Assembly: GCA_038045945.1 (NCBI GenBank)
Contig: JBBSXC010000003.1
Location: 32,001 to 96,000 of the forward strand
DNA: 64,000 nucleotides
Reading direction: 5' to 3'
Source: Nanobdellota archaeon
GTDB taxonomy: Archaea > Nanobdellota > Nanobdellia > Pacearchaeales > GW2011-AR1
The position numbers and the translations under genes were made by a program. Positions within the stretch are counted from its first letter, which is position 1. Every line of letters starts with the position of its first letter. The notes under the pieces were generated by a model, which saw only the letters and a program-made list of their open reading frames with translations, was not told the origin of the DNA and did not search any database. Below, piece after piece: positions 1-61,285 of this stretch.

Positions 1-220
1 TGTCTCTGTCATCTATAGCATGGATCCTCTTTGGGTCGTACTTGCTATCTCTAACATCTTCATCAAATTCTGCCTTAAAATCATCCCAAGATTCTAAGCC
101 ATCAAAAGAAGTCTTAACGATTATTGCTCTAGTCTCTGGAATAGTAATTAATTCGCCATACCTAGAAGAGAAATCACTAAAAGAATCCTCATAAATAACA
201 ATTTTAGGAGAAGAAGTCAT
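1..220 (-). CDS. Receiver-like protein, paralog of 217-630 (runs off the window start)
   Basis: Read manually from ATG at 220: MTSSPKIVIYEDSFSDFSSRYGELITIP..., first 12 aa identical to ORF 217-630; ATGA overlap with that gene's stop. Confidence 0.7.
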   Translation of the reverse strand, partial: MTSSPKIVIYEDSFSDFSSRYGELITIPETRAIIVKTSFDGLESWDDFKAEFDEDVRDSKYDPKRIHAIDDRD

Positions 221-630
221 ATTTTTTCTCCCCTAAGTAATTTTTCTAGAAATCCTTGTGTTATCTCGATTCCTGAGTATGCTCTAACATTCTTTTTTTC
301 AGCTAAGTATCGTATATCGTTATCTCCGGTGTTAAGAACTAATTTTTTATTATCGATCCTATCCATTAATGTTAATGCTTTTCCAACAAGTCCATCAGAA
401 AAATAAATATCCGCTTGTTGGATATCATGAGAGTTTACTTCCTCGCGGCTAAGGGGATTAAAAGTTGTTAGTGGATAATTTGCTTCAACAAATCTTCTAA
501 CCTTTGCAGGATCATCTAAGAATTCAACAAAGAAAACATTTACAGGCATAACTTTAAGAATTTCACCATAACGATCTCTCAATGAAGGCCATTCGTCTTC
601 ATAAATAACAATTTTTGGAGAAGAAGTCAT
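217..630 (-). CDS. Divergent CheY-like response-regulator receiver-domain protein
   Basis: KIVIYEDE (acidic pocket), ADIYFSDG (phospho-Asp position), LVLNTGD (conserved Thr); conserved Lys not evident. Confidence 0.55.
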   Translation of the reverse strand: MTSSPKIVIYEDEWPSLRDRYGEILKVMPVNVFFVEFLDDPAKVRRFVEANYPLTTFNPLSREEVNSHDIQQADIYFSDGLVGKALTLMDRIDNKKLVLNTGDNDIRYLAEKKNVRAYSGIEITQGFLEKLLRGEKI

Positions 631-632
631 AA

Positions 633-1133
633 CTAATCTTTCCTCCTTTCGTAAGAAGACTCAATACCTAATTTGTGTCTGACCTGAGAAACAACACGCC
701 TACCAACATCATAGCCAAGTGAAGCAAGATAAGAAGCAATATCCCTATCACTAAAAGGAGCATTACTATCCTCGCTATCAATGTAAGATTTAACTTCATC
801 AAAGACGTATTGGGGAATCTTGTTTCTTTCTCTCTCACTACTAGCTAATATTTCAGCATTCTTAACAACATCCTCAATACTACAAGAAATAGGAGGAGAA
901 AGACGAAGATTTTGAAGAAAACCTGTATAGGGTTTACCACCACTACCGCCCAATAAATCAAGTTGCAACTTAGAGCGATCATAAACATTAGATCTATCAT
1001 AAACTTTAGGAAGATCAGCACCACGAGAATAATTAGACTTAGCACTAGGAGGCGGAGATGGGCTCTTATAACCGGGTCTGCCAGGAATATTCAACCTTTT
1101 CTTACGACCGCGAAACTTACCAGGCTTAGCCAT
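633..1133 (-). CDS. Protein with C-terminal sigma-54 (RpoN) DNA-binding domain and basic/Pro-rich N-terminus
   Basis: VKSYIDSEDSNAPFSDRDIASYLASLGYDVGRRVVSQVRHKLGIESSYERR matches RpoN C-terminus pattern I..E+...PLSD..I...L...G..+ARRTVAKYR..LGI.SS..R. Confidence 0.8.
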   Translation of the reverse strand: MAKPGKFRGRKKRLNIPGRPGYKSPSPPPSAKSNYSRGADLPKVYDRSNVYDRSKLQLDLLGGSGGKPYTGFLQNLRLSPPISCSIEDVVKNAEILASSERERNKIPQYVFDEVKSYIDSEDSNAPFSDRDIASYLASLGYDVGRRVVSQVRHKLGIESSYERRKD

Positions 1134-1135
1134 GA

Positions 1136-2434
1136 CTAACTATACCCCCTAGAACTTTTCTCAAAAGATTTCTTAGCCCTCTGGTATAATACTGAATTGC
1201 CAAATTCTCCATCAAGAAATCTTTCCTCACGAGGATCATGCAAAGGAGTACCCTTACTCAACTCAACAAACGCAAGTCTTTGATAAGGAGTATCACAAGA
1301 TTCACGCATCTCAGAAAGATGTTTGTGTTTCCCAGAAAGCTTGAACATAGCTGAGTGATAATGAAAATCACTCCAATAAAATTCGCCATCAGAAACATCC
1401 GATTTACTAAAAGAAGAAAGAATCTTAAAAATTTTTCTTCTACCAAATACTTTAGCAAGAGGCTGAGCATGATCAATATAGAAAGCCGCAAGCTTCATAG
1501 CAGAAGAATCAGAAAACATGTGAGAAGCACTAACAAAGAGACATTCAGCTTTCAAAGGATCACTCTTAACAAGTAATTCGGCCTGATCAGCAACAGCTCT
1601 GGCTAGAGCGGGATAATGATAAAGAGCATCACCCAGATGAGACTGGACACCGGTTAAATGAAACATGGTGTGATGGAAAGAAGAATCGCCGCCACCAATC
1701 CTCTTGAAAGCCTCAATACTTTTAATATAAGAATCATCATCAAAAGAAGCTTCAGCAATAAAAGAACTAAGAAGGTGAAGAGACCTGTTATCAGGCCAAA
1801 GAGTAAGACCCTTATCAGTCAATTCTCTAGCCTTGCCAAGATGGCCATCATGAGTAGCATCAGAAGCAATACTCTGAATAACGCAACTAAGACCTTGAGA
1901 GTAAGAAATCCTAACTTCTCTTTCACATTTAGAAGGCTCCCAATCAGCAGCAGTACACTCGATTGGAAAACGATCAACATCAAGAATCATGTGTTCAAGA
2001 GAAGCATACTTACCTAGAGGAGACTTCTTTTGACTAGTAGCAAGCTCAAAATGACCCATTTCGCCTTCAACTTCAACATCAGAACAAGCATCCTTAACGC
2101 CAGTTTGACACCTAAAACCAGCGCTGTAACCCTTGAGATACATGATACTCGCAATTAAGAAAGGAAGACCAACACAGTTCCCACCCTTGCGAGAAAGAAC
2201 ATCTTGAGGCCTGAAAGTTTCAGGAACGTATACAAAACCACTTCTTCTAAGGTCTCTCTTAATATCAAGAGCAGCGACTTTAGGATCAGAATCAACACTA
2301 ATAGAATCAGCAAGAAATTTCATTTCTCTAAGAGTCCTATCATCCGCACCACAAACCTCTAAGTAAGAAGAAACTTCAGCACTAGTCCTATCTCCTTGAA
2401 GTGCAGTTAGTGGTAAATCTAAAACATCAGTCAT
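1136..2434 (-). CDS. Transglutaminase-like (SirB1-type) domain plus TPR-like helical repeats
   Basis: DVLSRKGGNCVGLPFLIASI (Cys motif), EHMILDVDRFPIEC (His/acid), then TPR-like ARELTDKGLTLWPDN. Confidence 0.6.
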   Translation of the reverse strand: MTDVLDLPLTALQGDRTSAEVSSYLEVCGADDRTLREMKFLADSISVDSDPKVAALDIKRDLRRSGFVYVPETFRPQDVLSRKGGNCVGLPFLIASIMYLKGYSAGFRCQTGVKDACSDVEVEGEMGHFELATSQKKSPLGKYASLEHMILDVDRFPIECTAADWEPSKCEREVRISYSQGLSCVIQSIASDATHDGHLGKARELTDKGLTLWPDNRSLHLLSSFIAEASFDDDSYIKSIEAFKRIGGGDSSFHHTMFHLTGVQSHLGDALYHYPALARAVADQAELLVKSDPLKAECLFVSASHMFSDSSAMKLAAFYIDHAQPLAKVFGRRKIFKILSSFSKSDVSDGEFYWSDFHYHSAMFKLSGKHKHLSEMRESCDTPYQRLAFVELSKGTPLHDPREERFLDGEFGNSVLYQRAKKSFEKSSRGYS

Positions 2435-2486
2435 ATTTCATACTCCATTATTAACTTAGGAGTAGTGAATACGCTTGTAATATCTA

Positions 2487-2515
2487 ACTGATATTAATGA
2501 TATGACTGATATTAA
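2487..2515. promoter_or_regulatory. Direct-repeat operator candidate between divergent genes
   Basis: ACTGATATTAA at 2487 and 2505; TGATAT three times at 9-bp period (2489, 2498, 2507). Confidence 0.45.
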
Positions 2516-2555
2516 AAAGCGAAAGAGTTAAAAATAGCAAAATCTAGTAGTTTTT

Positions 2556-3473
2556 ATGGAAGAAAGGAAATTAATTAAGCAAGGTGGAGGTGGATTGACT
2601 ATTTACCTGCCTAAGAAGTGGGTTGACAGAAGGGGGCTGAAGAACGGGGACAATGTTAGAGTCCTAGAAACAGACACCTCCCTAATAATTGAGGGTGACA
2701 TTAATACCAAGAATGAAATAAAAATTGATATTAACGAATCAAACATTCACGACTTAAGACACCTGCTTACTCATGCTTACCGTAGGGGTTTTAGCAAAAT
2801 AATCATTAGTTATAACAAGCCGCAAGAAATAATTAAAGAAACAAAAAAAGTAACTAGTAACGTGCTTTTAGGATTCGAAGTAACAAGCATTGAACAAAAA
2901 AGCATCATTATAGAAAACATTTCTGAACCTAGTGAAGAAAAATTTGATGTAATGCTCCAAAAAGTATTCTTAGTAATATCAGAAACTAATGAAGTATTAT
3001 TAAAAGATTTTACTAACGGGAAGTTTTCCAGCATTGACGAAATTAAAGAATTAAGAGACCAAGGTGACAAATTCATAATATTCTGCAAAAGACTCATCAC
3101 TAAGAACAGAAATGATAAAAACAGCCTCCTTGAATGGGAATTCATGACATTCCTTATGGACATCCACCACAATTACTATTATTTGTACCACTACGCTCAT
3201 GATAACAAAATTAAGACTAACAAGAACTTCTCTCAATTAATAAAAGACTTAGGACTATACTTTAGTGATTTAAGAAGCGCTTACCTGAAGAGGGATGTAT
3301 CAATAGTTCACAGAATTAATGAACAAAAAAAGAAATATCACTTTGGTGAAATAATTAAGCTATTAGAAAAATCGCGAGGGGAAGAAAACATTATCTATTC
3401 ATACATTAGAGAAATATTTCGTTCAATCCAATTATCAACTAGTCCTATAATGTCAATGAGTTTGGGATACTAA
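2556..3473 (+). CDS. AbrB-PhoU family (archaeal phosphate-uptake-regulator-like) transcriptional regulator, copy 1
   Basis: N-terminal RKLIKQGGGGLTIYLPKKWV...GL..GD.V AbrB motif, AY..GF and LLGFEV, helical PhoU-like C-terminus. Confidence 0.85.
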   Translation: MEERKLIKQGGGGLTIYLPKKWVDRRGLKNGDNVRVLETDTSLIIEGDINTKNEIKIDINESNIHDLRHLLTHAYRRGFSKIIISYNKPQEIIKETKKVTSNVLLGFEVTSIEQKSIIIENISEPSEEKFDVMLQKVFLVISETNEVLLKDFTNGKFSSIDEIKELRDQGDKFIIFCKRLITKNRNDKNSLLEWEFMTFLMDIHHNYYYLYHYAHDNKIKTNKNFSQLIKDLGLYFSDLRSAYLKRDVSIVHRINEQKKKYHFGEIIKLLEKSRGEENIIYSYIREIFRSIQLSTSPIMSMSLGY

Positions 3474-3485
3474 ATTATTTGTTTC

Positions 3486-5045
3486 TTAATCTTTCTCTCT
3501 TCTTTCTTTTATCACTCTATCAGCAGTTCCTTCTCCCTGTTCCTTGTCAAGACTTTGTTTAGCGTCATAAAGATTTTTTGCTAATTCCCATCTGTCATGA
3601 ACTCTATCGCCGGAAGTATGAAATTGTGGTCTCATCCAGTTATCAACATAGTTATATGTTATTTGAAGAACTTTACTCTCGATATCATCTGGGTCCTTTC
3701 CTTCTGCTGACATTTCAAGTAGTTTGGTTTTTACGCTTTCATAATCTGTTCTTCCTCCAGCTCTAACTACTGCTTCATAAGTTACGTCTGGGTTTAGATA
3801 AGCTGCAATTGCCGTTTTTTCATCACCTAATTTTTCAACCCACGCTCTAAAATCATAAGCTTCAGTTATTTCTCCTGCACCTAAATTCAATGCTTCAGCA
3901 TCTAAGACTTTTTTGCCTTGAAGTGCAACACGAATGATTTTTTCTTTACGCTCATAACTCAAATCTTTTTTATTTGAGTCTACTTTTTGAGCAAGACTAT
4001 CCTTCTCTTGATTCAATGAAGTTACCTCGTTACGAATAGCAGCAAATCCTAAAGCTACAGCAGTCAAAGCACCATTTATCAAGAACCATCTCTTAGCCCG
4101 TGCACGAGGCTTTGATGATTCATACCTCTTCATTGCTTTACTAAATTCTTCTTCAAGTGATTCTCCATCCTTGTATCTATCTGATGGGTCATAAGCTAAA
4201 CACTTCCTCAAAAACGGTCTTAGAGGTTTAGGAATGTTTGATAATGAATCTTCAATCATACCTTTATATTCCTGAAGACCAATATTTCTCATTGATTCAA
4301 TTGGATCTTTAGAATTTTCTAACCTTTTTTCTGTAGGGTACTTACCACTAAGCAGCTTGACTGCTAGAGAACCAACTGACCAAACATCTGACTGAGTTGT
4401 TGGGTGAGAATTATCAGCAAATACTTCTGGAGCTCTGATAGCTACATGACCAATATTGTCTCTTGGGCTCTCACTCCAATCTTCTGGACTAACTGTTGTA
4501 GCAGTACCTGTATCGGCAATAACTAATCTTGTTCGACTACTGCCAGCCGGATCATAAGACATTATGTTATCAGAATTTAAGTCTCCATGAACTCTAGAGA
4601 AATCTGTGTGTAACTCCTTTACTCCATGAACTATGTCCTCTAGCCCTAAAAGGATGGTTTCTGTTCTCTTGCTTCCTTTAAGGTAATGGTTCCAGTATTC
4701 TTCCCAATTCCTTAGAGTACTATGACATTGAGGCATCCAAATAAATGGTTTACCATCAAGGTCTTTGAATGGAACTGATGGAAGAACGTTACGTGCTGGA
4801 GCAAATCTTGATTCTCTAATTAAGACATCAGTCTCATTAATGTTTCTATGAACTCTTTGCTTTTTAGCAATTTCTGATGGAGAAAAAACCTTTATTGCCC
4901 CGTGCTGACCACTAATAACATCAAAAGCAGCATAGACTGCTCCATTACTTCCTCTCCCCAACTCTTGATAATTAACAAATCTGTCAGAACGAATAACATC
5001 CTCATGACCATCACTCCTCTTAGGGATACTACTACTAGAACTCAT
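3486..5045 (-). CDS. Membrane-anchored Hanks-type Ser/Thr protein kinase, copy 1
   Basis: LGRGSNGAVY, AIK, HGDLNSDN, ADTG, RAPE, SDVWSVG; TM WFLINGALTAVALGFAAI, coiled coil, C-terminal domain; GGAGGT SD upstream. Confidence 0.9.
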   Translation of the reverse strand: MSSSSSIPKRSDGHEDVIRSDRFVNYQELGRGSNGAVYAAFDVISGQHGAIKVFSPSEIAKKQRVHRNINETDVLIRESRFAPARNVLPSVPFKDLDGKPFIWMPQCHSTLRNWEEYWNHYLKGSKRTETILLGLEDIVHGVKELHTDFSRVHGDLNSDNIMSYDPAGSSRTRLVIADTGTATTVSPEDWSESPRDNIGHVAIRAPEVFADNSHPTTQSDVWSVGSLAVKLLSGKYPTEKRLENSKDPIESMRNIGLQEYKGMIEDSLSNIPKPLRPFLRKCLAYDPSDRYKDGESLEEEFSKAMKRYESSKPRARAKRWFLINGALTAVALGFAAIRNEVTSLNQEKDSLAQKVDSNKKDLSYERKEKIIRVALQGKKVLDAEALNLGAGEITEAYDFRAWVEKLGDEKTAIAAYLNPDVTYEAVVRAGGRTDYESVKTKLLEMSAEGKDPDDIESKVLQITYNYVDNWMRPQFHTSGDRVHDRWELAKNLYDAKQSLDKEQGEGTADRVIKERREKD

Positions 5046-5200
5046 TCTAAAACCTCCACTATTGGTTCATCAATAATATCAATAGAAAGCCTAACTATGG
5101 TGCCTGGTTTAAGTTTTCCCTCAATTGATCGAGGAATAACAATTATAGATTGAGAACCATGCTTAGCAATACGCTTAGTAAGAGAAAATTTCTTAGTCAT
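5042..5200 (-). CDS. Small AbrB/SpoVT-like DNA-binding protein (52 aa), copy 1
   Basis: MTKKFSLTKRIAKHGSQSIIVIPRSIEGKLKPGTIVRLSIDII; start moved to ATG 5200 downstream of TATA; ATGA-coupled to kinase. Confidence 0.75.
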   Translation of the reverse strand: MTKKFSLTKRIAKHGSQSIIVIPRSIEGKLKPGTIVRLSIDIIDEPIVEVLE

Positions 5201-5273
5201 TTTATGTATAAAATACATAAAGAAAAAGACTATATAAAGCTTACGAAGTAGTGTAACTAACAAGTGGTAATAA
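5201..5273 (-). promoter_or_regulatory. Archaeal-type promoter of AbrB-kinase operon with upstream conserved motif and palindrome
   Basis: Minus strand TTATTACCACTTGTTAGTTAC...CGTAAGCTTTATATAGTCTTTTT; palindrome TTTATGTAT-AAA-ATACATAAA 5201-5221. Confidence 0.6.
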
Positions 5274-5317
5274 TGTCTAGAAAAAGCCTTAAATATAAGT
5301 AATCCCTAAAGATTACT

Positions 5318-5554
5318 ATGAAGACTATTACTATAAAGCTTCCTGAGAGAGAAGCTGAAGAGCTTGAATTATTTGTTAAGTCTAGCGGTTATCCTTCGAA
5401 ATCGGAATTTATTAGACACTTAATAGTTGGTAAGATGGGTTTAGAAAGAAAAGAAAAGCTCGGATGGATGATGCTTGGCCAAAAAGCTTTAGCTAAAAGA
5501 TGGAATAATCCTAAAGATGATAAGGTATGGAGCAGTTATATAAAAAATGATTAA
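5318..5554 (+). CDS. Ribbon-helix-helix (CopG-like) antitoxin
   Basis: MKTITIKLP...GYPSKSEFIRHLI; overlaps downstream toxin. Confidence 0.8.
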   Translation: MKTITIKLPEREAEELELFVKSSGYPSKSEFIRHLIVGKMGLERKEKLGWMMLGQKALAKRWNNPKDDKVWSSYIKND

Positions 5555-5888
5555 TCAAGGAGACTTATTATTGGCGCCTTTTCCCTTTTCAGATCAGTCT
5601 GGAAGAAAAGTAAGGCCTGTAATTGTTATTAGTAATGACAAATATAACTCTCATCATGATGATATAGTTGCAGTTGGTGTAACGTCTAACGTTTTCAAAA
5701 ATCCATACTACATTGATTTCACCAATGCTGACTTAGACTTTGGTAATCTAGTAACTGTTTGCTCAATAATGGCTGATAGTCTAACACTGCTTGATAAAGA
5801 ATTGATTACTAAAAGAATCGGTAAAGTTAACAAGAACAAAATGAAAACAGTTTTTGATAAAGTTGTTGAAATAATAAAAACTAAATAA
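5547..5888 (+). CDS. mazF: PemK/MazF-family toxin
   Basis: QGDLLLAPFPFSDQSGRKVRPVIVISND...VGVTS. Confidence 0.9.
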   Translation: MINQGDLLLAPFPFSDQSGRKVRPVIVISNDKYNSHHDDIVAVGVTSNVFKNPYYIDFTNADLDFGNLVTVCSIMADSLTLLDKELITKRIGKVNKNKMKTVFDKVVEIIKTK

Positions 5889-5901
5889 ATTTAGTCATCT
5901 T

Positions 5902-6432
5902 TTAATGATCCCACTCGCCTTTTGATTCCTGAGTGGGTTTTTCTTTTATTATTTCTCTGAATCTTATTGCTCCTTCATCATAAATTGCTGATTCTCTTCT
6001 TTCAGCAATCTTATAGCTTGCATAACCTAGTAAAGTTAAAGCACCAAATGTTCCCATTAACGCTTGATGTAGGGGATTATTATCATGTTCTCTTCTATCA
6101 TTTTTATAAGTAATTACTGATTCTTCTTTAGAAGAAAGATTTATCTCTTGGTCTAATTTCTTTATGGTTTCATCAAATTTGGCTGCTAATGGTTCTTGAT
6201 AAATCTTTAATTCTTCTCTAACATTATTCGTTCCTAAAGACCAAAGCTGACTTTGAAGACCATTTCTATAATTAACCAACAATCGATAATGATCATAACC
6301 CATGGTTTTAGGCCTGTCAGGGCCTCCAAATACCCAAAAACCAAGACTAGAAGCTAAACCTAATGATGAAAGAGCAAAAGTAAGACTAGAACAACGCTTA
6401 ATTCTCTTAACAGAATCTAACCGAGAAGTCAT
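5902..6432 (-). CDS. Hypothetical membrane protein (2 TM flanking a coiled coil)
   Basis: Two hydrophobic segments; ATGA-coupled to upstream gene. Confidence 0.6.
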   Translation of the reverse strand: MTSRLDSVKRIKRCSSLTFALSSLGLASSLGFWVFGGPDRPKTMGYDHYRLLVNYRNGLQSQLWSLGTNNVREELKIYQEPLAAKFDETIKKLDQEINLSSKEESVITYKNDRREHDNNPLHQALMGTFGALTLLGYASYKIAERRESAIYDEGAIRFREIIKEKPTQESKGEWDH

Positions 6433-6746
6433 TTCTTTTTCCTCTCACTCAAAAAAGAGTTAATTGCCTTAGACAAGTCTGGTTTGTGTGAATCTCTGCT
6501 TCTTAATGACTCATAATAATTATCATAAGAAGAAGTGTTACTTCTATAACTTCCACCCCACTCAAATAATCGCCAATTATCATTATCAACAACAACCAAG
6601 TCGGATCTGCCATCGCCATTAAAATCTAAAGAATAAACTTCGCGAGGATCATAATCAGAAGAATTATTGCCCAGAACGAAACCAGCAGATAAAACGCCTA
6701 AAGCACAAGCAGCAAATCCCATCTTTCTTAAATTTTCATCAGACAT
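6429..6746 (-). CDS. Small membrane-anchored protein with one FG-GAP/VCBS-like Ca-binding motif
   Basis: N-terminal TM then DFNGDGRSDLVVVD. Confidence 0.6.
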   Translation of the reverse strand: MSDENLRKMGFAACALGVLSAGFVLGNNSSDYDPREVYSLDFNGDGRSDLVVVDNDNWRLFEWGGSYRSNTSSYDNYYESLRSRDSHKPDLSKAINSFLSERKKK

Positions 6747-6760
6747 TTTTCTTTTCTCCT

Positions 6761-8002
6761 TTACTTAAAATTATAAGTTAAGCCAAGCATACCTGAATAA
6801 GAATTTTTACCTTCTACAGGCATAGCAGCACGAAGGGCGAAGTCTAAACTAAGACTCTTATCAGCATTAGTGTAAATTTTAGCTCTTAAATCAGCATTAT
6901 TAACACTCAAACTCTTATCATTAAGATCAGAATGCCTACCAACTTGTAAAACAACATCCTTAATCCATGAATCACTAACGCTACCTAAACCAACAGCAAC
7001 ATCGGAGTTAAAGTATCTGCTTGAAGGTTCATCATGATACTTAACGTCAAAACTAATGCTGCCTAAATTACCACTATTGCTAGCTGAAGCACCAAAGAAA
7101 TCAATTCTAGAGTCGCCATCACCGATGCCGAAAGGGAAAGTAGCATCACCATCTCCACCAAGGAATGGAGTAATGGAGTTGAAAAGAGTGTCCTGAGTAC
7201 CAACAAGGAAAGCACCACCTGGAGCCTTCTTACCAAAACGAACCCTAGCCTCAAAACCCTTATTTTGGCCTTGAACAGTATCAAAAACTTTAGCTTGAGT
7301 GAGAACTTTGTAACCGTCTATAGCACTATTAGCATCAGACCACTTGTAAGAGAAAGCAGTGTTAAAAGTATCAGAATCATTAACTCTATGACCGCCAATA
7401 CCAAAATCAATCTTATTATCATTAAATACTAAAGCATAACCAAAATTACCATCGCTATCAGCAGTAACCTGAGGTTTAAACTTATCAACATTAAAACCGA
7501 TAGCACTAGCAAGTCGGTTCTCAAAAGGTTTAGCATTATCCTGGAATTCAAAATTAAGGAAGTCAAGAGTACTATCTTTGAATGATTTCTCAAGCATAAG
7601 GCGACCATTATCCAAAGATGAATCTAAGAAAGACTGATAACCCGCATTAAAGCGAACACCAGTATTAGACTCAGACTTACCAAAAGTTAAGTCAGCACCA
7701 TAAATATTAGATCCGTTCTCGCCACGATAAGCAACCTTACCTAAATCACTAGAAAGAATCTGGTGAGTTTGCAAACCACCATGACCATCAGCATAAGCTC
7801 TAGAAGTCAAAACTACAGAATCAACAGCCCTTTCTAAGTCAGACTTAGCTGGAGCATTATCTCCGGCTAGAGCACTAGCTCCAAGAGCATAAGGCATCAA
7901 GGCAGCAGTTAAAGCTGCAACATTAGCCATTTTCCTTATACTTTTTCTTATTGTTTGTTTCATTGTATTTTTATCCATCATCTTATGGTCTGTCGTAACC
8001 AC
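6761..8002 (-). CDS. Secreted beta-strand-rich protein resembling an outer-membrane beta-barrel (start uncertain)
   Basis: Signal-like MANVAALTAALMPYALGASALA, many alternating amphipathic strands, C-terminus SYSGMLGLTYNFK. Confidence 0.55.
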   Translation of the reverse strand: MVTTDHKMMDKNTMKQTIRKSIRKMANVAALTAALMPYALGASALAGDNAPAKSDLERAVDSVVLTSRAYADGHGGLQTHQILSSDLGKVAYRGENGSNIYGADLTFGKSESNTGVRFNAGYQSFLDSSLDNGRLMLEKSFKDSTLDFLNFEFQDNAKPFENRLASAIGFNVDKFKPQVTADSDGNFGYALVFNDNKIDFGIGGHRVNDSDTFNTAFSYKWSDANSAIDGYKVLTQAKVFDTVQGQNKGFEARVRFGKKAPGGAFLVGTQDTLFNSITPFLGGDGDATFPFGIGDGDSRIDFFGASASNSGNLGSISFDVKYHDEPSSRYFNSDVAVGLGSVSDSWIKDVVLQVGRHSDLNDKSLSVNNADLRAKIYTNADKSLSLDFALRAAMPVEGKNSYSGMLGLTYNFK

Positions 8003-8050
8003 TTAATGATAACATAATAGCAGAAATCTTGGGATATAAACATTTTTATT

Positions 8051-8080
8051 AAACTATATAAACTAGTATAAATCTATATA
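8051..8080. promoter_or_regulatory. Three 10-bp imperfect direct repeats, operator candidate
   Basis: AAACTATATA AACTAGTATA AATCTATATA just upstream of CTTAAATA TATA-like box of the regulator. Confidence 0.4.
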
Positions 8081-8122
8081 TATTTAGGAAAAGCTTAAAT
8101 ATCGGTCTATATTAACAATCAA

Positions 8123-8998
8123 ATGAAACGTAAATTAGTACAACAAGGGGCTAGCACAATGATGATTAGTCTACCTAGCAAGTGGGTTAAGGCAAATAAC
8201 CTGATAAAGGGGAGCGAAGTGGACATGGATGAAAAGGGTAAAGAAATAGTTATTTCAACTTCAATCAAGAAAGATAATGAAAAAAAGGCCGTAGTGGACC
8301 TATCAGGATATGATTTGCTAATAAACAGAGTTATAGTTTCTCTATACCTTAAGGGATATGAGGAAGTAGAACTAATATTCAAAAACCGTGAAGAAATGAA
8401 GAAAGTGAAGAAGCATGTCCTTGAAGAATTGCTTGGTTTTGAAGTAATAAAACAGGAACAAAATAAGATGATCATAAGAGACCTTACAGGTTTTGAAAAA
8501 CAAAATATTGATGATGTGATAAAGAGGATATTCTTCGTTCTAGATGGGATGCTTGAAGACTTAATTAATGCTGTAAACAAAAAAGAAAGCCTTGATGGAA
8601 TAGTCGACCTTGATTCAAGCATTAATAAGCTGACACACTTTTCACTTAGAATACTTAACTCTAAAGGATATTCTCAAGCAGATAAGACCGAAGAATTCTA
8701 TGGTATGATCTCGATACTTGAACAAATTGGCGACTTAATAAAACAATTAGTGATGGACTTAACAAAAGACAAACTTTCAACAAACCAACTAGAAGTAATC
8801 AGAAAAATTAGATTACTGTTAGATATTTTTTGCAAAATATTGTTTAAGTTTAATAAAGAAGAAGCTGTTAAATTCGCAAAACTATACCAAGAAATAAAAG
8901 ATTCAATAAAGAATAAGAATAAGGTTGACTTAACGCTTAACCAGATTAACGAGGCGATAATAAGAATGAATAACCACTTGCTGGTAACCGTGTTATAA
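8123..8998 (+). CDS. AbrB-PhoU family transcriptional regulator, copy 2
   Basis: MKRKLVQQGASTMMISLPSKWV, LYLKGYEEV, LLGFEV. Confidence 0.85.
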   Translation: MKRKLVQQGASTMMISLPSKWVKANNLIKGSEVDMDEKGKEIVISTSIKKDNEKKAVVDLSGYDLLINRVIVSLYLKGYEEVELIFKNREEMKKVKKHVLEELLGFEVIKQEQNKMIIRDLTGFEKQNIDDVIKRIFFVLDGMLEDLINAVNKKESLDGIVDLDSSINKLTHFSLRILNSKGYSQADKTEEFYGMISILEQIGDLIKQLVMDLTKDKLSTNQLEVIRKIRLLLDIFCKILFKFNKEEAVKFAKLYQEIKDSIKNKNKVDLTLNQINEAIIRMNNHLLVTVL

Positions 8999-10588
8999 TT
9001 ATATGTCTTGATGGTAGTAAGCAAGCCAAGCATCAACAAACTTTCTCCCATCTTTATCTAAAAACTTTCTGTAAGACTTGTAATCATTACTATTAGATTT
9101 AGACTTTACTTCTCTTAATTTACCAATTCCGGATCTTGAGACTACCATCGTATCTTCAACGTCTACATTACCCTTACTATCTCGGCATTCTTCAATTGCC
9201 ACTTCTAGTGATGCAGCAATTGTTGGGAAAAAGGGGCCAAATGCTGGATCATTCTTATCAAAATCTTTATTGTTCAACTTGGCAAATAATCTTGATTGAT
9301 ACTCTGTTAATCTTTCGCCTCTAACATCTGAATTTGCTTGTGCGAAACTCTTAGCAAAATAAGCAACAATTTTATCCTTTGATGCTAACTTAGCGTACCT
9401 GTCAAAACCTTGTTGAATCATGCCATCAGCAGTTTCATAGTCTAAATATTCCTGGCTACTTTCTGAAACGAAAGATGTTTGTTTGCCTTCAAAAATCTCA
9501 TCTTTTGGTTGATAAAGCATTCCCCTAACTTCTTGATCTGATAATTGTCTTCTTTCTGGAATTAATGAAGAAGCATAAATGCCAAAACCTATTAGTCCGC
9601 CAAGCCCTAATGCTCCTAAACCAAACCTTCTAGTATACTTTTTGAATTCATTCATTACGTGAGACTTATCAAGTGTTCTTTCTAAGTTTTCTTTAAGGTC
9701 TGTACCGTTGCTAAACCTTTTATTTTCATCAATATTAAGTCCTTTTGAAAAGAACTTTCTTATCCTTCTGTCACTAATTTTCTCTTTAATTCTTCTATCT
9801 ATGAATTCTTGTATAGCCTCTTTACTTGAACTCTTTATCTCATCATAACTTAAACCCTCTAGGGGGTATTCCCCAGTTTTTAACTTAAACATTAATGCTG
9901 TAGCACTATAGGTGTCTGTTCTCTTTGTAGGGTGACTCCCTTCATTAAAAAGTTCTGGGGCTCTAGTTAAAAACCATCCGATATTATCTCTTGGGGACTG
10001 AGTCATTCCCATACCTTCAACCGTTGATGCACCAAAATCATTAAGTAACAATCGTCCCTCTAAATTAATGGCAAAATTTCCCGGATGACCATCACCATGG
10101 ACTCTGTTTAGTCCTGCCTTTGAGTGAACTTCGCTATATGCCGTTGCAATATCCCTCACATAATGATCAAAATGGGGTTCTACCTTCTCCTCCCATGATG
10201 AAGGATTATAAGGATTATCTTTTGCTATAACCTCTAACATTTTATCTAAAAACATGTCGTAAGGGGGCATTACAATGAATCTTCTACCATTCTTATCGAC
10301 TTCAAATCTTGTTGGAACAACTCTTGAACAAGCAGAAAGCTGAACAGCCTCATTATCCATTGCTTTATTCTCATCAAGATTTCTCTTAGGCATCTTACCT
10401 AAAGCTTCATCCGTTGGAGCAAAAACTTTTATTGCAACATCCTGGCCCGTTATTCTGTCTTTACCCTTATAAACAATACCCCAAGAGCCCATACCGTAAA
10501 TCTCTGCAGGATCAAAAGAATACCTATAAGAATCAATGATCCCAGGGTTCCCCCTTCTAGAGACAAAAGAATTATCCGTTTCAGTCAT
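8999..10588 (-). CDS. Membrane-anchored Hanks-type Ser/Thr protein kinase, copy 2
   Basis: GMGSWGIVY, VAIK, HGDGHPGN, NDFG, RAPE; TM FGLGALGLGGLIGFGIYA; GGAGGT SD upstream. Confidence 0.9.
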   Translation of the reverse strand: MTETDNSFVSRRGNPGIIDSYRYSFDPAEIYGMGSWGIVYKGKDRITGQDVAIKVFAPTDEALGKMPKRNLDENKAMDNEAVQLSACSRVVPTRFEVDKNGRRFIVMPPYDMFLDKMLEVIAKDNPYNPSSWEEKVEPHFDHYVRDIATAYSEVHSKAGLNRVHGDGHPGNFAINLEGRLLLNDFGASTVEGMGMTQSPRDNIGWFLTRAPELFNEGSHPTKRTDTYSATALMFKLKTGEYPLEGLSYDEIKSSSKEAIQEFIDRRIKEKISDRRIRKFFSKGLNIDENKRFSNGTDLKENLERTLDKSHVMNEFKKYTRRFGLGALGLGGLIGFGIYASSLIPERRQLSDQEVRGMLYQPKDEIFEGKQTSFVSESSQEYLDYETADGMIQQGFDRYAKLASKDKIVAYFAKSFAQANSDVRGERLTEYQSRLFAKLNNKDFDKNDPAFGPFFPTIAASLEVAIEECRDSKGNVDVEDTMVVSRSGIGKLREVKSKSNSNDYKSYRKFLDKDGRKFVDAWLAYYHQDI

Positions 10589-10761
10589 TTCTTTACCTCC
10601 TTTTCTTCAACCTTTATTTTGTCTTCTAAAACATCAATAGACAACTTAACAATCATACCAGGCTTAAGGTGCTGCTCAAGAATTCTCGGAACAACAATGA
10701 TTGCCTGGCTACCATGCTTAGCAATACGCTTAGTGATAATAAAGTTTTGTTTAGAAGTCAT
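10585..10761 (-). CDS. Small AbrB/SpoVT-like protein (58 aa), copy 2; absent from the ORF track
   Basis: Read manually: MTSKQNFIITKRIAKHGSQAIIVVPRILEQHLKPGMIVKLSIDVLEDKIKVEEKEVKK, clear paralog of 5042-5200. Confidence 0.8.
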   Translation of the reverse strand: MTSKQNFIITKRIAKHGSQAIIVVPRILEQHLKPGMIVKLSIDVLEDKIKVEEKEVKK

Positions 10762-11072: not shown

Positions 11073-11087
11073 ATTTTTATTATAAAT

Positions 11088-11170: not shown

Positions 11171-11176
11171 ATGAGT

Positions 11177-14257: not shown

Positions 14258-14318
14258 GAAGAAAATTATGATGAATGTTATTTATAAGGGTTATGATGTA
14301 GCAAAAAAGAATAAAAAA

Positions 14319-18298: not shown

Positions 18299-18342
18299 TA
18301 TCAGAAAGCTTTTTAATACCTTAAAATTAACTAGTAACATCT

Positions 18343-18414
18343 GCCTCAATAGTATATCGGTTAGTACACTTGCCTGTCGCGCAGGAGAGCCGGGTTCGAT
18401 TCCCGGTTGGGGCG
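18343..18414 (+). tRNA. tRNA-Asp (GTC), no encoded CCA
   Basis: GCCTCAA/TTGGGGC acceptor stem, anticodon arm CTTGC-CTGTCGC-GCAGG, T-loop GGTTCGATTCC. Confidence 0.95.
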
Positions 18415-18750
18415 TGATATATTTTTGTGCTTTTACGGAGCCTCCTAAAAAAAGGTTAAGTAAATGCACAAAATAATTCTTGTTATTTTTTAGGGGTCGT
18501 ATACAAAAAGTAGCAGTCGCTTAAATTAAGCGAATGTTTTAATAAAATATGAAAATCAACATTTACAAAGATCAAGAGAGCTAAGAGAGATAAACATACC
18601 TAAGCTTTTTATTTTTTAGACCTATACACTCTAGTCCGACAAGATTTATAAATCAATAGAAGCACAGACTGTCAACGATAAAAAACGCTTTCATAAAAAA
18701 AAGCGTGACCCTAAAAAATAACAAGAACGTATCATCGCCGGTTGGGGCGT
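18403..18750. mobile_element. Non-coding mini-cassette between two copies of the tRNA 3' end
   Basis: CCGGTTGGGGCGT at 18403-18415 and 18738-18750; internal perfect 19-bp inverted repeat 18477-18495/18709-18727. Confidence 0.6.
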
Positions 18751-27879: not shown

Positions 27880-28419
27880 ATGGAAGAAAAAGAAAAAACA
27901 GAAGAAAAAAGTGCTTCAGAAACATTAGAAGAATCAGAAGGGAACGCAATGCTAGAAAAAATAATAAGTGTACTAAACGGAGAAAAATCGCAGATAGCAG
28001 AAGAAAAAATTAGCAAGGAATCAGAATACCTAGAAAAACTACAAAGATTACAAGCAGAATTCGAAAACTTCCGAAAAAGAGTAGAAAAAGAAAAACAAGA
28101 ACAACAAAGTAACGCAAACACAAACCTAATAGGAGAACTATTAAACGTAATGGACAATTTTGAACTATCACTAAAACACAACAAAGACAAAGGAGTAGAA
28201 ATGATATATCAAGAACTGAAAAAAACATTAGAAAAACAAGGACTAAAAGTCATAGAAACAAAAGGAAAATTCGACCCAAAAATACACGAAGCAGTAATAA
28301 AAATCGCAGGAAAAGAAGATGACGCTATATTAGAAGAGATACAAAAGGGTTATGTGCTAAACAATAAGCTTTTAAGGGCAGCAAAAGTAAAAATTAGTAA
28401 ACTGGAAGAAAAAAAATGA
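27880..28419 (+). CDS. grpE: Nucleotide exchange factor GrpE
   Basis: [34 protein letters not shown]. Confidence 0.95.
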
Positions 28420-30260
28420 ACAAAATAAACAAAACAATAGGAATAGACCTAGGAACAACATTCTCAGCGGTAAGCGTAATGGAAGGAGGAAGGCCAAAAA
28501 TAATACCAAACACAGAAGGAAATAACACAACACCAAGCGTAGTATCAATAAACGGAAACGAAGTACTAGTAGGAGACGCAGCAAAAAGAGGAGCAGTAGC
28601 AAACCCAAAAAGCACAATAAGAAGCATAAAGAGACTTATGGGAACGAAAAAACTATCAATAATAGGAGACAAAGAATACACACCAGAACAAGTATCAGCA
28701 ATGATCCTACAAAAACTAAAAAGAGACGCAGAGGCATACCTAGGAGGAGAAGTAACAGACGCAGTAATAACAGTACCAGCATACTTTGGAGACGCACAAA
28801 GAAACGCAACAAAAGACGCAGGAATAATAGCAGGACTAAACGTTAAAAGAATAATAAACGAACCAACAGCAGCAGCATTAGCATATGGCCTAGAAAAATC
28901 ACACGAACACACAATACTAGTATTCGATTTCGGAGGAGGAACATTCGACGTATCAATACTAGAACTAGGAGGAGGAATATTCGAAGTAAAATCAACAAGC
29001 GGAGACAACTTCTTAGGAGGAGACGACATAGACAACCTAATAATAGAATTCTTAATAGCAGAATTCAAAAAAGAAAGTGGAATAGACCTAAAAAACGATC
29101 TTGTAGCATTACAAAGACTAAGAGACGCAAGCGAAAAAGCAAAAATAGAATTATCATCAGCACAACAAACAAAAATAACAATACCATACATAGCAGCAGG
29201 AGCAGACGGACCAAAACACTTAGACGTTAACTTGAGCAGAGCACACTTCGAAAAAATATGTGAACCAATATTTGAAAGACTAAAAAATCCGACAAAACAA
29301 GCAATAAAAGACGCTAAGATGCCAAAAATTGACAAAGTAATACTAGTTGGAGGAAGCACAAGAATACCAAAAGTACAAAAAATAGTAGAAGAACTAACGG
29401 GCCTAGTACCTGACAAATCAGTTAACCCAGACGAAGCAGTATCACTAGGAGCAGCAATACAAGGAGGAATAATAAGCGGAGACGTAAAAGACATACTACT
29501 ATTAGACGTAACACCACTAACACTAGGAATAGAAACGATGGGAGGACTAAAAATGTCCCTAATAGAAAGAAACACAACAATACCAACAAAAAAAAGCGAA
29601 GTATTCACAACAGCAGCAGACAACCAATACGCAGTAACAATAAACGTGCTACAAGGAGAAAGAGAAATGGCAGAAGACAATAAGTCCTTAGGAAAATTCG
29701 ACCTAGTAGGAATACCACCAGCACCAAGAGGAATACCACAAATAGAAGTAACATTTGACATTGACACAAACGGAATAGTAAAAGTATCAGCAAAAGACTT
29801 AGGAACAGGAAGAGAACAAAAAATAACAGTTACTGGAGGAGCACTAACAGAAAAAGAGATAGAAAGCATGATAAAAGACTCAGAAAAATTCAAAGAAGAA
29901 GACAAGAAAAAAAGAGAAAGAATAGTAACAAAGAACGAAGCAGAATCACTAGTATACTCAACAGAAAAAATGTTAGAAGAATACAAAGACAAGGTAGACA
30001 AAGAAACAATAAACAAAATACAAAAAGAAGTAACAACACTAAAAGAAGTATTAGCTACTGATAACCACGAAGAAATAAAAACAAGACTAGAAGAACTAAA
30101 AAAAGTATCACAAGAATTAGGAGTAAAAATTTATGAACAATCAGCAAAAGAAGCACAAGCAGGAAATGCGGCTAACAAAGAGGGAAAAGTAGTAGACGCA
30201 GAAGTAGTAGACGAACACAAAGGCCACGATCACGAAGGCGAACACAACCATTCTCACTAA
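28416..30260 (+). CDS. dnaK: Chaperone DnaK
   Basis: [43 protein letters not shown]. Confidence 0.98.
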
Positions 30261-30354
30261 AAAATAATTTACTAATAACAACATCCTAATTAGTGAATCC
30301 AAAATAATCATTATCTTTCATTTAATTTAAAAAGTTAAATACTACATCATAATC

Positions 30355-31434
30355 ATGGCAAAAAAAGACTATTACGAAATATTAGGAGTAAAAAGTACAG
30401 ATTCTAATGAAACAATAAAGAAAAATTATAAGTTATTAGCACTAAAATACCACCCTGATAAAGCAGCGCCAGAAAAAAAGAAAGAGTACGAAGAAAAATT
30501 CAAAGAAATAAACGAAGCATACAGCACAATAGGAGACGAAGGAAAAAGAAGAAAATACGACTCTGGAGAAACAGCACAAAACTTTGGTGGAGGAGGATTT
30601 AGTCAATCACAAGGTTTTGGAGGAGAAGACTTATCGGACATACTATCAAACCTTTTCGGGGGAGGATCATTTAGAAACGCTTCAAAAAACCAGGGCGGCA
30701 GAAGAAGGGGAGAGGACTTAAGTTATGAAATAACAATAGAATTTACAGAGGCAGCATACGGGTGCGAAAAAGAAATAATAATAAAAAAAGATTATGTTTG
30801 TGAAAATTGTGAAGGATCAGGATCAGAAGACAAAGAATATGATAAGTGTGAAACATGTAACGGTCACGGAAGACTAAGAATAAGCCAAAAAACACCATTT
30901 GGAATAATGAACCAAACAATAATCTGCGAAAAATGCGAAGGAGCAGGAAAAATACCAAAAAACAAATGCACAAACTGTGAAGGTGAAGGAATAATAAACA
31001 AAAAAGAAAAAATAAAAATCAAGATACCAGCAGGAATAGACAATGGACAAACACTAAGAGTAGTAGGCGGAGGCCAAGCAATAAAAAACGGGGAAGAAGG
31101 AGACTTATTCTTAACAGTCAATGTTAAAGAGCACAAAGTATTCAATAGAACCGAATTCGACATTCATATGGACTTAGAAATAAGCTTCTCAAAAGCAGCC
31201 CTAGGAGGAGAAGTAGCAGTTACAACACTAAAAGGAGAATTATTAAGAATAAAAATATCAAAAGGAACACAAACAGGAAGCGTGTTAAGACTGGCTGGAA
31301 GAGGAATACCCATACTAAACAATAATAGTAAGTTTGGAGACCAATTCATAAAAATAATAGTAAAAACACCAAAAAAGTTAACAAAAAAACAAACAAAAAT
31401 ATTTGAAGAATTAGCAAAACTAGAAGAAGAATAA
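30355..31434 (+). CDS. dnaJ: Chaperone DnaJ
   Basis: HPD J-domain, G/F region, four CxxCxGxG repeats. Confidence 0.97.
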   Translation: MAKKDYYEILGVKSTDSNETIKKNYKLLALKYHPDKAAPEKKKEYEEKFKEINEAYSTIGDEGKRRKYDSGETAQNFGGGGFSQSQGFGGEDLSDILSNLFGGGSFRNASKNQGGRRRGEDLSYEITIEFTEAAYGCEKEIIIKKDYVCENCEGSGSEDKEYDKCETCNGHGRLRISQKTPFGIMNQTIICEKCEGAGKIPKNKCTNCEGEGIINKKEKIKIKIPAGIDNGQTLRVVGGGQAIKNGEEGDLFLTVNVKEHKVFNRTEFDIHMDLEISFSKAALGGEVAVTTLKGELLRIKISKGTQTGSVLRLAGRGIPILNNNSKFGDQFIKIIVKTPKKLTKKQTKIFEELAKLEEE

Positions 31435-59868: not shown

Positions 59869-60026
59869 GATACAAAATAAACTCTTGCAAGAATACTATT
59901 TAAGTTTTTATGAAAAAACAGAGAAAAAATCATGTACAAATACTTGTACACAAAAAAATTTGTAAGACTAATAATTATCCAATTAGTATAGACAAGCTTT
60001 TAAAGTCAAAAACATTATTCACTATT

Positions 60027-60191
60027 ATGAACGAAAAAAAGAGGCTTAAAATGGCAGTAATCGCTGGAGCTGCAGCAGCATCAAAATTCATGAAGAATAA
60101 TAGGATGGCAACAAGCGAAGACGCAATAAGACACGTAACAAAAGAAATAGCTTCAATTCTAGAAAACATTGAGAAAGACGGAGAAATATAA
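60027..60191 (+). CDS. Small hypothetical protein (54 aa)
   Basis: Likely start MNEKKRLKMAVIAGA at 60027 below TTTTAAAG box. Confidence 0.6.
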   Translation: MNEKKRLKMAVIAGAAAASKFMKNNRMATSEDAIRHVTKEIASILENIEKDGEI

Positions 60192-60216
60192 AAACAATAA
60201 CTTTTTATTTAAGTAA

Positions 60217-60717
60217 ATGAAAAGAGTCAACCACACAATAATAATTGTAACAATAATAGCTTTACTATCAATAGCACTCTACATAAACAGCGATAATAAA
60301 GAAAAAACACAAATAATTAACGACCAAGAAGCAAAAACAACAAAAACATTTACATCTCCAACATACATAACTTACAAAAATTTTGAGCCAGTAATGAGCA
60401 AAATGAGCATTATTAAAGACGTACCAGAAGAATACCCGATACAACTAAAATTTTTCAATTTTAACACCGGGATTAGACAATGGGAAAAATCATACATAAT
60501 TTCTTCGGCGGGTGTTAAAGAAGGAACGATAGAAAACCCGGAATTAACAGTTGTTCTAAACTCAAAATACTTACAAGGACTAACAACAGCAAACTTTTGC
60601 TCAGCAATAAGCCTAGCAAAAAAGAACGGAGACTTAGGAATAGAATCAGAATCATCAAGCATAAGCCTAGCAATAAAGTATAAATCACTAATAAAACACA
60701 AAGACTGCTTAGGATAA
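60217..60717 (+). CDS. Membrane-anchored protein, SCP2-like fold candidate
   Basis: N-terminal TM; NPELTVVL...FCSAISLAKKNGDLGIE. Confidence 0.55.
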   Translation: MKRVNHTIIIVTIIALLSIALYINSDNKEKTQIINDQEAKTTKTFTSPTYITYKNFEPVMSKMSIIKDVPEEYPIQLKFFNFNTGIRQWEKSYIISSAGVKEGTIENPELTVVLNSKYLQGLTTANFCSAISLAKKNGDLGIESESSSISLAIKYKSLIKHKDCLG

Positions 60718-60724
60718 AAAAAAT

Positions 60725-61285
60725 TTAAGCCCCTGCTAACTCTCTTCCTCTATATGTTTCTCTAATTCTCTCCCTAGCCCTGTGAACTCTTGACATAACA
60801 GTGCCTGGAGGTATCCCAAACTTTTCGGATATTTCTTTACAACTCATTTCTCCAACAGATTTAAGTCTTAAAGCCTCAAAATATAAAGGGTCTACACCTT
60901 TAGAATAATTATCAACAGCATCTCTTTCCTCATAAGACATTTCACCATTATGCCCTTCATAATTTTTTTCTGAGGCAGCTATTCTCTCTAAAGAATCATC
61001 ATTAACCGGACCAAGCTTCCCACGCTTCATATGAGTTAACAAGTCTCTCTTAACAATTGTTTTAAAAAGAGCCTTAAAACTCGTATTAGGCATAACATTA
61101 CGACTCGTTTTAAACAAAGCGGTATTGGCAATCCATTCTGCATCACTAACCTCTACCTTCCCATAAGTGCTCCTGCTAAAATCTCTAGCATAATTCATAG
61201 CCAAAGCCATGTGTTCAGTGATCATTCTTTCTCTTTCACTATCAGTGAATAATCCTTCATTCTTGTAACTACCTAATGATGACAT
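60725..61285 (-). CDS. ECF-type sigma-70 family protein (divergent region 2, conserved region 4)
   Basis: DAEWIANTALFK...SFKALFKTIVKR (region 2); EALRLKSVGEMSCKEISEKFGIPPGTVMSRVHRARERIRE (region 4.2). Confidence 0.85.
   Translation of the reverse strand: MSSLGSYKNEGLFTDSERERMITEHMALAMNYARDFSRSTYGKVEVSDAEWIANTALFKTSRNVMPNTSFKALFKTIVKRDLLTHMKRGKLGPVNDDSLERIAASEKNYEGHNGEMSYEERDAVDNYSKGVDPLYFEALRLKSVGEMSCKEISEKFGIPPGTVMSRVHRARERIRETYRGRELAGA

Follow-up and report, generated by a model that had tools for sequence, protein, structure and literature searches.

How does a genome with an archaeal core come to encode proteins of the bacterial initiation machineries for transcription and replication, and on whose DNA do these proteins act? 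The question is raised by a 64,000-nucleotide stretch of DNA, hereafter the window (positions 32,001 to 96,000 of contig JBBSXC010000003.1, G000:C3:32001-96000), from a Nanobdellota archaeon (assembly GCA_038045945.1, G000; 847 kb, seven contigs). The window encodes the predicted last domain of a sigma-54 factor, a divergent DnaA-family protein and an extracytoplasmic function (ECF) sigma factor, together with two membrane kinases and a putative porin-like protein. That these bacterial-type genes form one system is not supported, since each has its own distribution. The reading we favour, with modest confidence, is that of a mosaic genome, in which bacterial-type genes were acquired separately and at different times by an organism with an archaeal core, and whose products act on the archaeon's own DNA.

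The source genome (GC content 0.34-0.37, completeness 93%, contamination 1%) has the archaeal backbone proposed for it in a first-pass annotation of the window. A gene for a TATA-binding protein (TBP; two repeats of 97 bits each) is located on the window's own contig (C3), Orc1/Cdc6 is represented by a Cdc6_C match on contig C4, and the sole rpoB-like gene, followed by that for Rpo1N, is an archaeal-type open reading frame (ORF) of 1113 amino acids (aa), which scores under the bacterial cut-off. The bacterial partners that the annotation took to be lacking were not found: profile searches of this 93% complete genome gave no match for DNA_pol3_beta (DnaN), Sigma54_activat, Omp85 (BamA) or Response_reg, and none over the cut-off for Bac_DnaA. 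Among the regulators cited as archaeal, TrmB, a double Lrp/AsnC protein and two proteins with AbrB-type N-termini were recovered, but the PhoU part of a proposed AbrB-PhoU protein was not detected; likewise, tRNA-Asp does lack an encoded CCA, but this is not diagnostic of archaea. Related records carry the names Candidatus Pacearchaeota, Woesearchaeota, Nanoarchaeia or Nanoarchaeota, and the window is part of a Pacearchaeota-type DPANN archaeon.

These data also bear on a binning or assembly artefact, that is, bacterial-type genes lying on bacterial or chimeric DNA. This explanation is largely refuted and scarcely credible. The assembly is a seven-contig metagenome assembly in which no small-subunit ribosomal RNA gene was found, but TBP shares a contig with the window. 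The region was present in four sequencing runs, all of DNA from groundwater metagenomes of one study, and positions 1-20000 were recovered in two of them (either of which may be the source run) as a single collinear contig with 0 differences. A recorded contig of 506,114 nt also carries the same proteins, and positions 2.5-14 kb are syntenic with a contig whose barrel protein is named Pacearchaeota by NCBI. GC content at third codon positions (GC3) is uniformly low over all 72 window genes (0.18-0.35), with no outliers among the sigma-54, DnaA-family and ECF genes (0.23-0.27), so these three are not distinguishable by composition.

Three DNA-binding proteins of bacterial type

The 72 ORFs of the window were scanned against Pfam. 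The RpoN-box protein is encoded by the middle gene of a three-gene operon with 2-nt spacers (Table 1). It matched Sigma54_DBD with 41.2 bits (cut-off 22.8; E = 1.8e-10), only over profile positions 99-160 of 160, and TIGR02395 only over its final 55 positions; its top match in the PDB was Aquifex RpoN (5ui5_I/2o8k_A; E = 4.7e-10, residues 113-164). The RpoN C-domain seen in the first-pass annotation is thus confirmed, and to judge from these alignments the protein holds only the last ~60 residues of sigma-54, the RpoN-box domain. Residues 113-164 are ~44% identical to the last 52 residues of Aquifex aeolicus sigma-54 (2O8K / 5UI5), and both the RR of the RpoN box and the LGI.SS.ERR tail are kept. 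Unlike bacterial sigma-54, the box reads GRRVVSQVR, and region I, the core-binding domain and the -12 helix-turn-helix (HTH) were all unmatched by Pfam and TIGR02395, with an alignment gap across the HTH; the first ~100 residues are instead basic, Pro-rich and of low complexity. The partners of a bacterial sigma-54, an enhancer-binding AAA+ activator and the bacterial core polymerase, were not found in the 93% complete genome. A word-based homologue search with the protein retrieved only itself, and its exact sequence has been recorded from the source organism alone.

A separate sigma-54-like family of 233-312 aa (~275 aa) occurs in other Nanoarchaeia and Woesearchaeota genomes. Its members combine a region-I-like start (LSPLELELLL), the -12 HTH and an intact RpoN box (ARRTVAKYK) without a core-binding domain, and the family profile matches residues 276-467 of E. 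coli-type sigma-54 (E = 1.2e-11). It was found in six of the 300 other genomes of the phylum sample described below and at seven loci among GTDB species genomes; the sigma-54-like genes of other genomes have no neighbours in common with the window. Close kinship with the RpoN-box protein was considered and is unsupported (hhalign probability 2.7% over 32 columns). Two cut-down forms of sigma-54 are thus predicted in these archaea – one of the RpoN box only and one of ~275 aa without the core-binding domain.

The last gene of the operon encodes a 137-aa protein, probably the "receiver-like" protein of the first-pass annotation. It had no NCBIfam match and no Pfam match even at E up to 1. Its Atlas model (predicted local distance difference test, pLDDT, 0.85) is a generic alpha/beta fold with flavodoxin-like neighbours, GT-B halves reaching a TM-score of 0.75 and response regulators 0.55-0.61. 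With Response_reg matched neither here nor elsewhere in the genome, the designation as a receiver is unsupported. The nearest Atlas feature neighbours of the protein are hypothetical proteins of Patescibacteria (Minisyncoccota, Absconditibacteriota; score 0.89), which may serve as a lead, and as a lead only, to a possible donor group.

The DnaA-family protein (P0001) gave weak single-sequence matches to DnaA models (TIGR00362, E = 2.4e-12); its 46.7 bits are far under the DnaA equivalog cut-off of 343.9. An exhaustive HMMER search among 1.84 billion proteins delimited a family of 25 members at E up to 0.001. The profile built from 16 of them, P0001 included, aligned with residues 14-443 of Bacillus subtilis DnaA (8btg_A) at E = 3.9e-43, and separately with domain I (4tps_B) and domain IV (1j1v_A). 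In the AlphaFold2 (AF2) model of P0001 (pLDDT 76.8), a domain I-like part, a disordered linker, an AAA+ domain with its lid and a domain IV HTH follow one another, and Foldseek ranks 1-10 are all DnaA. Profile and model together identify P0001 as a predicted member of a rare but genuine four-domain DnaA family; the four-domain DnaA of the first-pass annotation stands, as a divergent relative.

Like bacterial DnaA (B. subtilis 8BTG, A. aeolicus 2HCB), P0001 has all four domains in order and keeps Walker A (GPNGAGKT), the box-VII arginine (R331, in RLE), the conserved sensor-II arginine (R385) and the domain IV motif (DHGT at 489; DH(G/S)T in the family). Unlike it, the protein has a Walker B motif (LLVLDG) lacking the second acidic residue, and ATP hydrolysis is uncertain because D is followed by G. 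The family is also tiny, and the host has no dnaN match and carries Orc1/Cdc6. No array of DnaA-box-like repeats was found near the gene, where a repeat search yielded only two-copy, chance-like repeats. A word-based search with P0001 returned only itself, P0001 alone had no match among genome contigs, and two scans of the IMG/VR viral contigs (with P0001 alone and with the family alignment) were negative.

A second full-length member (567 aa) is encoded in a genome of the same class (L041, G182:C1:358507-359961), with no common neighbours; P0009 and P0017 are also members, and one member of the family is named Candidatus Pacearchaeota by NCBI. For both P0017 and P0034, a homologue of the porin-like protein, the longest contig on record is 41,476 nt, and the two may lie on one contig. 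DnaA domain-IV-like HTH modules with DHST-type motifs and no AAA+ domain were also seen in small or tandem-repeat proteins (185-490 aa) of other Nanoarchaeia genomes, which fits a general reuse of this domain as a DNA-binding module.

The ECF-type protein (P0002) scored 57.7 bits against TIGR02937 (cut-off 42.9) over residues 17-176 and matched SigW and SigE structures, while Pfam detected region 4 only (Sigma70_r4_2, E = 3.9e-11). As first annotated, it is predicted to be a full sigma2+sigma4 ECF-type sigma factor. It resembles SigW/SigE (ECF group 4) in this layout and in length, with a region 4 close to that of SigW. It differs from group 4 factors in a region 2 too diverged for Pfam and in its occurrence in an archaeon without a bacterial polymerase. 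It also lacks an anti-sigma neighbour: the adjacent genes encode small uncharacterized proteins and an ABC-2 permease/ATPase pair, 24 nt past which the ECF gene starts on the same strand. The pair is not conserved beside the ECF-like genes of eight other genomes, and no window neighbours are common to these.

The genome encodes three proteins of the sigma-70 family (RpoD-like, FliA-like and ECF-like), which raises the possibility that they serve as specificity factors of the archaeal polymerase, docking on its clamp coiled-coil, a site homologous to that of beta-prime. The prevalence of Sigma70_r2, above the Pfam cut-off in 129 of 301 phylum genomes, speaks for such a role, as does the canonical AED..Q motif of region 2.2 kept by other ECF-like proteins. 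Against it, the genome encodes TBP and Rpo1N, and the basal machinery of archaea would be expected to suffice, region 2 of P0002 is strongly diverged, and no computational support was obtained; a complex prediction for the N-terminal 413 residues of Rpo1N with the ECF protein scored 0.00, which weighs neither way. We regard this role as distinctly improbable.

According to the first-pass annotation, the partner-binding or catalytic parts of the three proteins had been lost or altered. This is fully true of the sigma-54 piece only: the DnaA-family protein keeps Walker A and the box-VII and sensor-II arginines, and the ECF protein keeps both sigma domains.

Distribution of the genes and readings of their origin

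The genes were traced in a phylum sample of 301 genomes, the source genome included, and in the 24 nearest relatives, among them a genome of the same genus (G301; 79% complete, Rpo1N 87% identical). Every relative is a metagenome assembly, and a gene is called absent when the searches did not find it there. Sigma54_DBD was detected in seven of the 301 genomes and in none of 13 from the same family, P0002-like proteins in nine and the porin-like protein in one. Full-length DnaA-family members were confined to the source genome and G182; as the DnaA profile matched generic AAA+ proteins in 276 of the 301, only full-length and domain-IV-only matches were used. Sigma70_r2 occurred in 130 of 301 (129 above the Pfam cut-off; 129 of 300 without G243, which is flagged unpublished). 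Only one of the 300 other genomes, G224, holds two of the components: an ECF-like gene and one like sigma-54. In the set of 24 nearest relatives, no genome matched the sigma-54 piece (0/24), the DnaA-family gene was not found, with only a weak AAA+ match in a single genome, and the ECF gene gave one weak match (1/24). The components do not co-occur in either set, which is at odds with the single co-inherited kit envisaged in the first-pass annotation, and the different distributions of the genes argue against a host-directed toolkit.

Comparison with G301 separates the genes further. Counterparts were found there for the first AbrB-type regulator (68% identity) and its kinase (51%), a MazEF-like pair (76-78%), the second AbrB-type regulator (44%) and, adjoining the latter, the porin-like protein (46% over 442 residues). 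In G301 the searches detected none of the genes for the sigma-54 piece, the DnaA-family protein and the ECF sigma. Unrelated genes occupy the position of the sigma-54 operon, and the 432-aa gene has no counterpart beside the AbrB-type gene. The possibility of recent scattered transfers, which the first-pass annotation had itself named, is in part borne out by the absence of these three genes.

Under the favoured reading, the bacterial-type genes would fall into three layers. The first, phylum-wide, would comprise the sigma-70-family genes and DnaK/DnaJ/GrpE; the second, at the level of the genus, the porin-like secreted protein as well as the membrane kinase and the AbrB-type gene next to it; the third, limited to this species, all three genes of the RpoN-box operon, the DnaA-family gene and this ECF sigma. 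Layers of different age fit independent acquisitions. The three DNA-binding proteins would remain in the archaeal cytoplasm and bind the archaeon's own DNA: the RpoN-box protein as a small HTH regulator, the ECF protein as a sigma-derived regulator with possible polymerase contact, and the DnaA-family protein as a DNA binder that depends on ATP, oligomerises and recognises specific sequences, serving as a regulator or else as initiator for a secondary replicon. Action on the archaeon's own DNA is favoured because all three lack a hydrophobic segment at the N-terminus, the Pfam scan of the 72 window genes showed no delivery machinery, and domain-IV-like modules occur elsewhere in the class. Domesticated DNA-binding regulators, the fallback idea of the first-pass annotation, are thus what we consider probable.

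Several observations weigh against this reading. The uniformly low GC3 speaks against a very recent transfer from a donor of different composition, so that the genes could be ancient, with losses in other lineages, and not new gains. Absence from G301 is weak evidence, since that genome is just 79% complete. The largely intact AAA+ domain of P0001, together with domain I, is beyond the needs of a plain regulator; the AED..Q motif in relatives of the ECF protein hints at a retained polymerase contact; and the outer-membrane protein (OMP)-like C-terminus of the porin-like protein, in an organism without BamA, is unexplained by separate acquisition. A search of sequencing runs found no RNA run with the region, only the four DNA runs. 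It is also conceivable, if quite unlikely, that some Pacearchaeota run bacterial-type initiation natively, with the DnaA-family protein firing the origin of the chromosome or of another replicon, sigma factors selecting promoters for the archaeal polymerase, and the barrel forming a BamA-free pore, either in some outer layer not yet recognised or in the cell of a partner.

Another source of such species-specific genes could be integrated or resident mobile elements, with the DnaA-family protein as element initiator and the sigma-like and multi-HTH proteins as regulators. The genes are indeed singletons, not found in G301 and patchy across the phylum; P0002 resembles the phage sigma family phrog_1740 (E = 1.5e-11), and the multi-HTH protein encoded two genes upstream of P0001 resembles phrog_664 (E = 1e-9). 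In addition, the 3′ end of tRNA-Asp (18403-18415) is repeated over 13 nt 335 nt downstream (18738-18750), and a G301 match to window positions 60024-60185 lies only 2.4 kb past tRNA-Asp. Yet the scanned window proteins include no integrase, capsid, relaxase or partition protein, IMG/VR scans for the DnaA family were negative, no repeat array accompanies its gene, and GC3 is the same as in the rest of the genome. The segment between 18.5 and 60 kb holds dnaK, recQ and pyrG, and the break in G301 resembles a rearrangement or missing assembly. This origin is, in our view, unlikely.

The break itself, in a comparison where window positions 30-64 kb are almost without DNA match in G301, could reflect an old insertion, a rearrangement or a gap in the assembly. 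We did not adopt the idea of a genomic island at tRNA-Asp (18.5-60 kb): the segment has housekeeping genes (dnaK, recQ, pyrG) and G301 is incomplete.

The first-pass annotation preferred effectors or decoys that would bind DnaA boxes and the promoters of sigma-54 and ECF factors in a bacterial host, with the barrel inserted in its outer membrane. In favour of such a role, the genome offers these proteins no partner in the form of a bacterial core polymerase, an activator, DnaN or BamA, the sigma-54 piece keeps a DNA-reading domain only, and the barrel family has a signal-type N-terminus and an OMP-like terminal YNF; possible bacterial hosts have also been raised for some DPANN in the available part of one account (PMC8204110). 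Nevertheless, the genes are not found together, a hydrophobic segment is missing from the N-terminus of all three DNA-binding proteins, and the scanned window genes include no delivery machinery. The RpoN box differs at five of nine positions from the ARRTVAKYR of a related Nanoarchaeia family and of Aquifex, the ATPase and oligomerisation motifs kept by the DnaA-family protein would be unneeded by a decoy, and sigma-70 genes are common in the phylum (130/301) and already published. We consider host-directed decoys very improbable.

Kinases, the porin-like protein and other genes of the window

The features discussed are listed in Table 1.

Table 1. Position of the genes and gene families considered (window coordinates unless another contig or locus is named)
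Feature	Coordinates	Strand	Basis or remark
137-aa protein, alpha/beta fold, last gene of three-gene operon	217..630	-	No Pfam/NCBIfam match
166-aa RpoN-box protein	633..1133	-	Sigma54_DBD match; domain at residues about 104-165
432-aa protein, no known family, first gene of three-gene operon	1136..2434	-	No family match
AbrB/SpoVT-N-terminal regulator 1	2556..3473	+	Weak MazE/AbrB matches
Hanks-type Ser/Thr kinase 1	3486..5045	-	Pkinase 87 bits; transmembrane segment 320-338; C-terminal outer part
Candidate secreted beta-rich porin-like protein, 413 aa	6761..8002	-	Hydrophobic N-terminus, Atlas neighbours, YNF
AbrB/SpoVT-N-terminal regulator 2	8123..8998	+	MazE_antitoxin 25.3 bits
Hanks-type Ser/Thr kinase 2	8999..10588	-	Pkinase 55 bits; transmembrane segment 325-343; layout as kinase 1
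tRNA-Asp(GTC), no encoded CCA	18342..18415	+	Sequence
GrpE-DnaK-DnaJ, bacterial-type chaperone set	27880..31434	+	Pfam scan
Multi-HTH protein, 451 aa	39722..41077	+	Weak HTH matches; phrog_664
Divergent DnaA-family protein P0001, 531 aa	42192..43787	+	TIGR00362, family profile, AF2/Foldseek
ECF-type sigma-70-family protein P0002, 186 aa	60725..61285	-	TIGR02937, Sigma70_r4_2, SigW/SigE structures
ABC-2 permease and ABC ATPase, upstream of ECF gene	61310..62883	-	Pfam scan
RpoD/RpoS-like protein, 288 aa, regions 2+4	G000:C5:57850-58062 (L004:1354-2220)		Outside window
FliA/WhiG-like protein, 267 aa, regions 2+3	G000:C1:108832-109044 (L005:1390-2193)		Outside window
~275-aa sigma-54-like family	L006, L007, L008, L010, L011, L012, L033-L039		
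DnaA domain-IV-like proteins without AAA+	L043, L044, L048, L051		Other Nanoarchaeia genomes

The porin-like protein begins with a hydrophobic, signal-type segment. Its Atlas model, of low confidence (pLDDT 0.60), has "Beta-barrel porin 2" as a neighbour (TM-score 0.65/0.62), and a single-sequence AF2 model (pLDDT 32) was unusable; no profile of NCBIfam or Pfam matched. Five homologues (39-50% identity), from Nanoarchaeota and Pacearchaeota where their source is named, all end in F (5/5) and three of them in YNF (3/5), an OMP-like motif. In the signal-type N-terminus, beta-rich sequence, terminal aromatic motif and TM-score of about 0.65 the protein is like monomeric OmpG-type and other diderm porins; unlike them, it has no profile match, it occurs in a host without an Omp85/BamA match, and its family was seen in few Pacearchaeota or Nanoarchaeota records only. 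The protein called barrel-like in the first-pass annotation is predicted to be secreted and beta-rich, with an OMP-like YNF end, but a closed barrel is unconfirmed by the two models, and we treat the protein as a candidate porin-like barrel, a lead only. A possible distant porin-like relative has been mentioned in Altiarchaeales (PMC12228718).

Both kinases carry all catalytic motifs (in kinase 1 GxGxxG, AIK, HGD..N, DTG and APE) and one hydrophobic segment past the kinase domain, a kinase-transmembrane segment-ectodomain layout that upholds the PknB-topology kinases of the first-pass annotation. They share with PknB/Stk1 the kinase domain, the single transmembrane segment and the outer domain. 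They are unlike PknB/Stk1 in that the Pfam scan found no PASTA match in either, HGD stands in place of HRD, and all NCBIfam kinase models score them far under the cut-off (NF033483, PknB/Stk1: 37-42 bits versus 450). An AbrB-N-terminal gene converges on a membrane Hanks kinase gene twice (2556-5045 and 8123-10588), and the first of these convergent pairs is conserved in G301.

The kinases also scored 45-57 bits against the NCBIfam MAD6 kinase (cut-off 460), and PADLOC reported mad1 (E = 9.4e-8), mad8 (E = 1e-5) and mad3 (E = 8e-4). These mad-type matches fall among the multi-HTH, DnaA-family and two kinase genes. A methylation-associated defence system was rejected, the matches being weak and generic, the genes dispersed and no methyltransferase lying nearby.

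Further observations concern small genes. An antitoxin-like gene and a PemK/MazF-like toxin gene (5318-5888) make up the pair conserved in G301, and a weak YoeB-like gene has a small HTH neighbour (21508-22111). A 177-aa protein with only a C-terminal J-domain (27243-27776) is encoded just upstream of, and divergently from, grpE-dnaK-dnaJ. Three tandem ORFs (112, 115 and 115 aa; 15877-16988) have no family match, and a G301 counterpart, a weak one, was found for the middle ORF alone.

Bacterial-type genes in DPANN archaea

The presence of sigma-70 genes and of DnaK/DnaJ/GrpE in DPANN is already published. Castelle et al. 2021 (PMC8204110) reported, in the part of the article available to us, sigma-70 genes especially in Woesearchaeota and the three chaperones as common; mis-binning was ruled out and anti-sigma factors were not found. 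The present genome resembles those cases, in which bacterial transcription and folding factors occur beside TBP/TFB, and the Sigma70_r2 count (130/301) agrees with them. It differs in its sigma-54, DnaA and barrel proteins, which that part of the account does not mention; its supplementary tables may list such families. Our literature search likewise retrieved no description, for these archaea, of the DnaA family, of either sigma-54 form or of the barrel family, a result on which supplementary tables may also bear. The "RpoN" of PMC8407392 was rejected as a report of sigma-54, as it is subunit N of the archaeal polymerase.

It is a known puzzle that DPANN archaea have bacterial genes for information processing, and the window adds three pieces to it: a DnaA family, a cut-down sigma-54 and a porin-like family. 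The first is a predicted, genuine four-domain DnaA family in Pacearchaeota-type genomes, set against zero matches to strict dnaA in 208 complete Nanobdellota genomes at the annotation threshold of a 2026 preprint (10.64898/2026.05.13.725050), as given in the part of it available to us. The porin-like family would bring an OMP-type C-terminal motif to genomes without BamA. With each of the three it should be practicable to test how proteins that normally depend on bacterial partners are reused in an archaeal cell.

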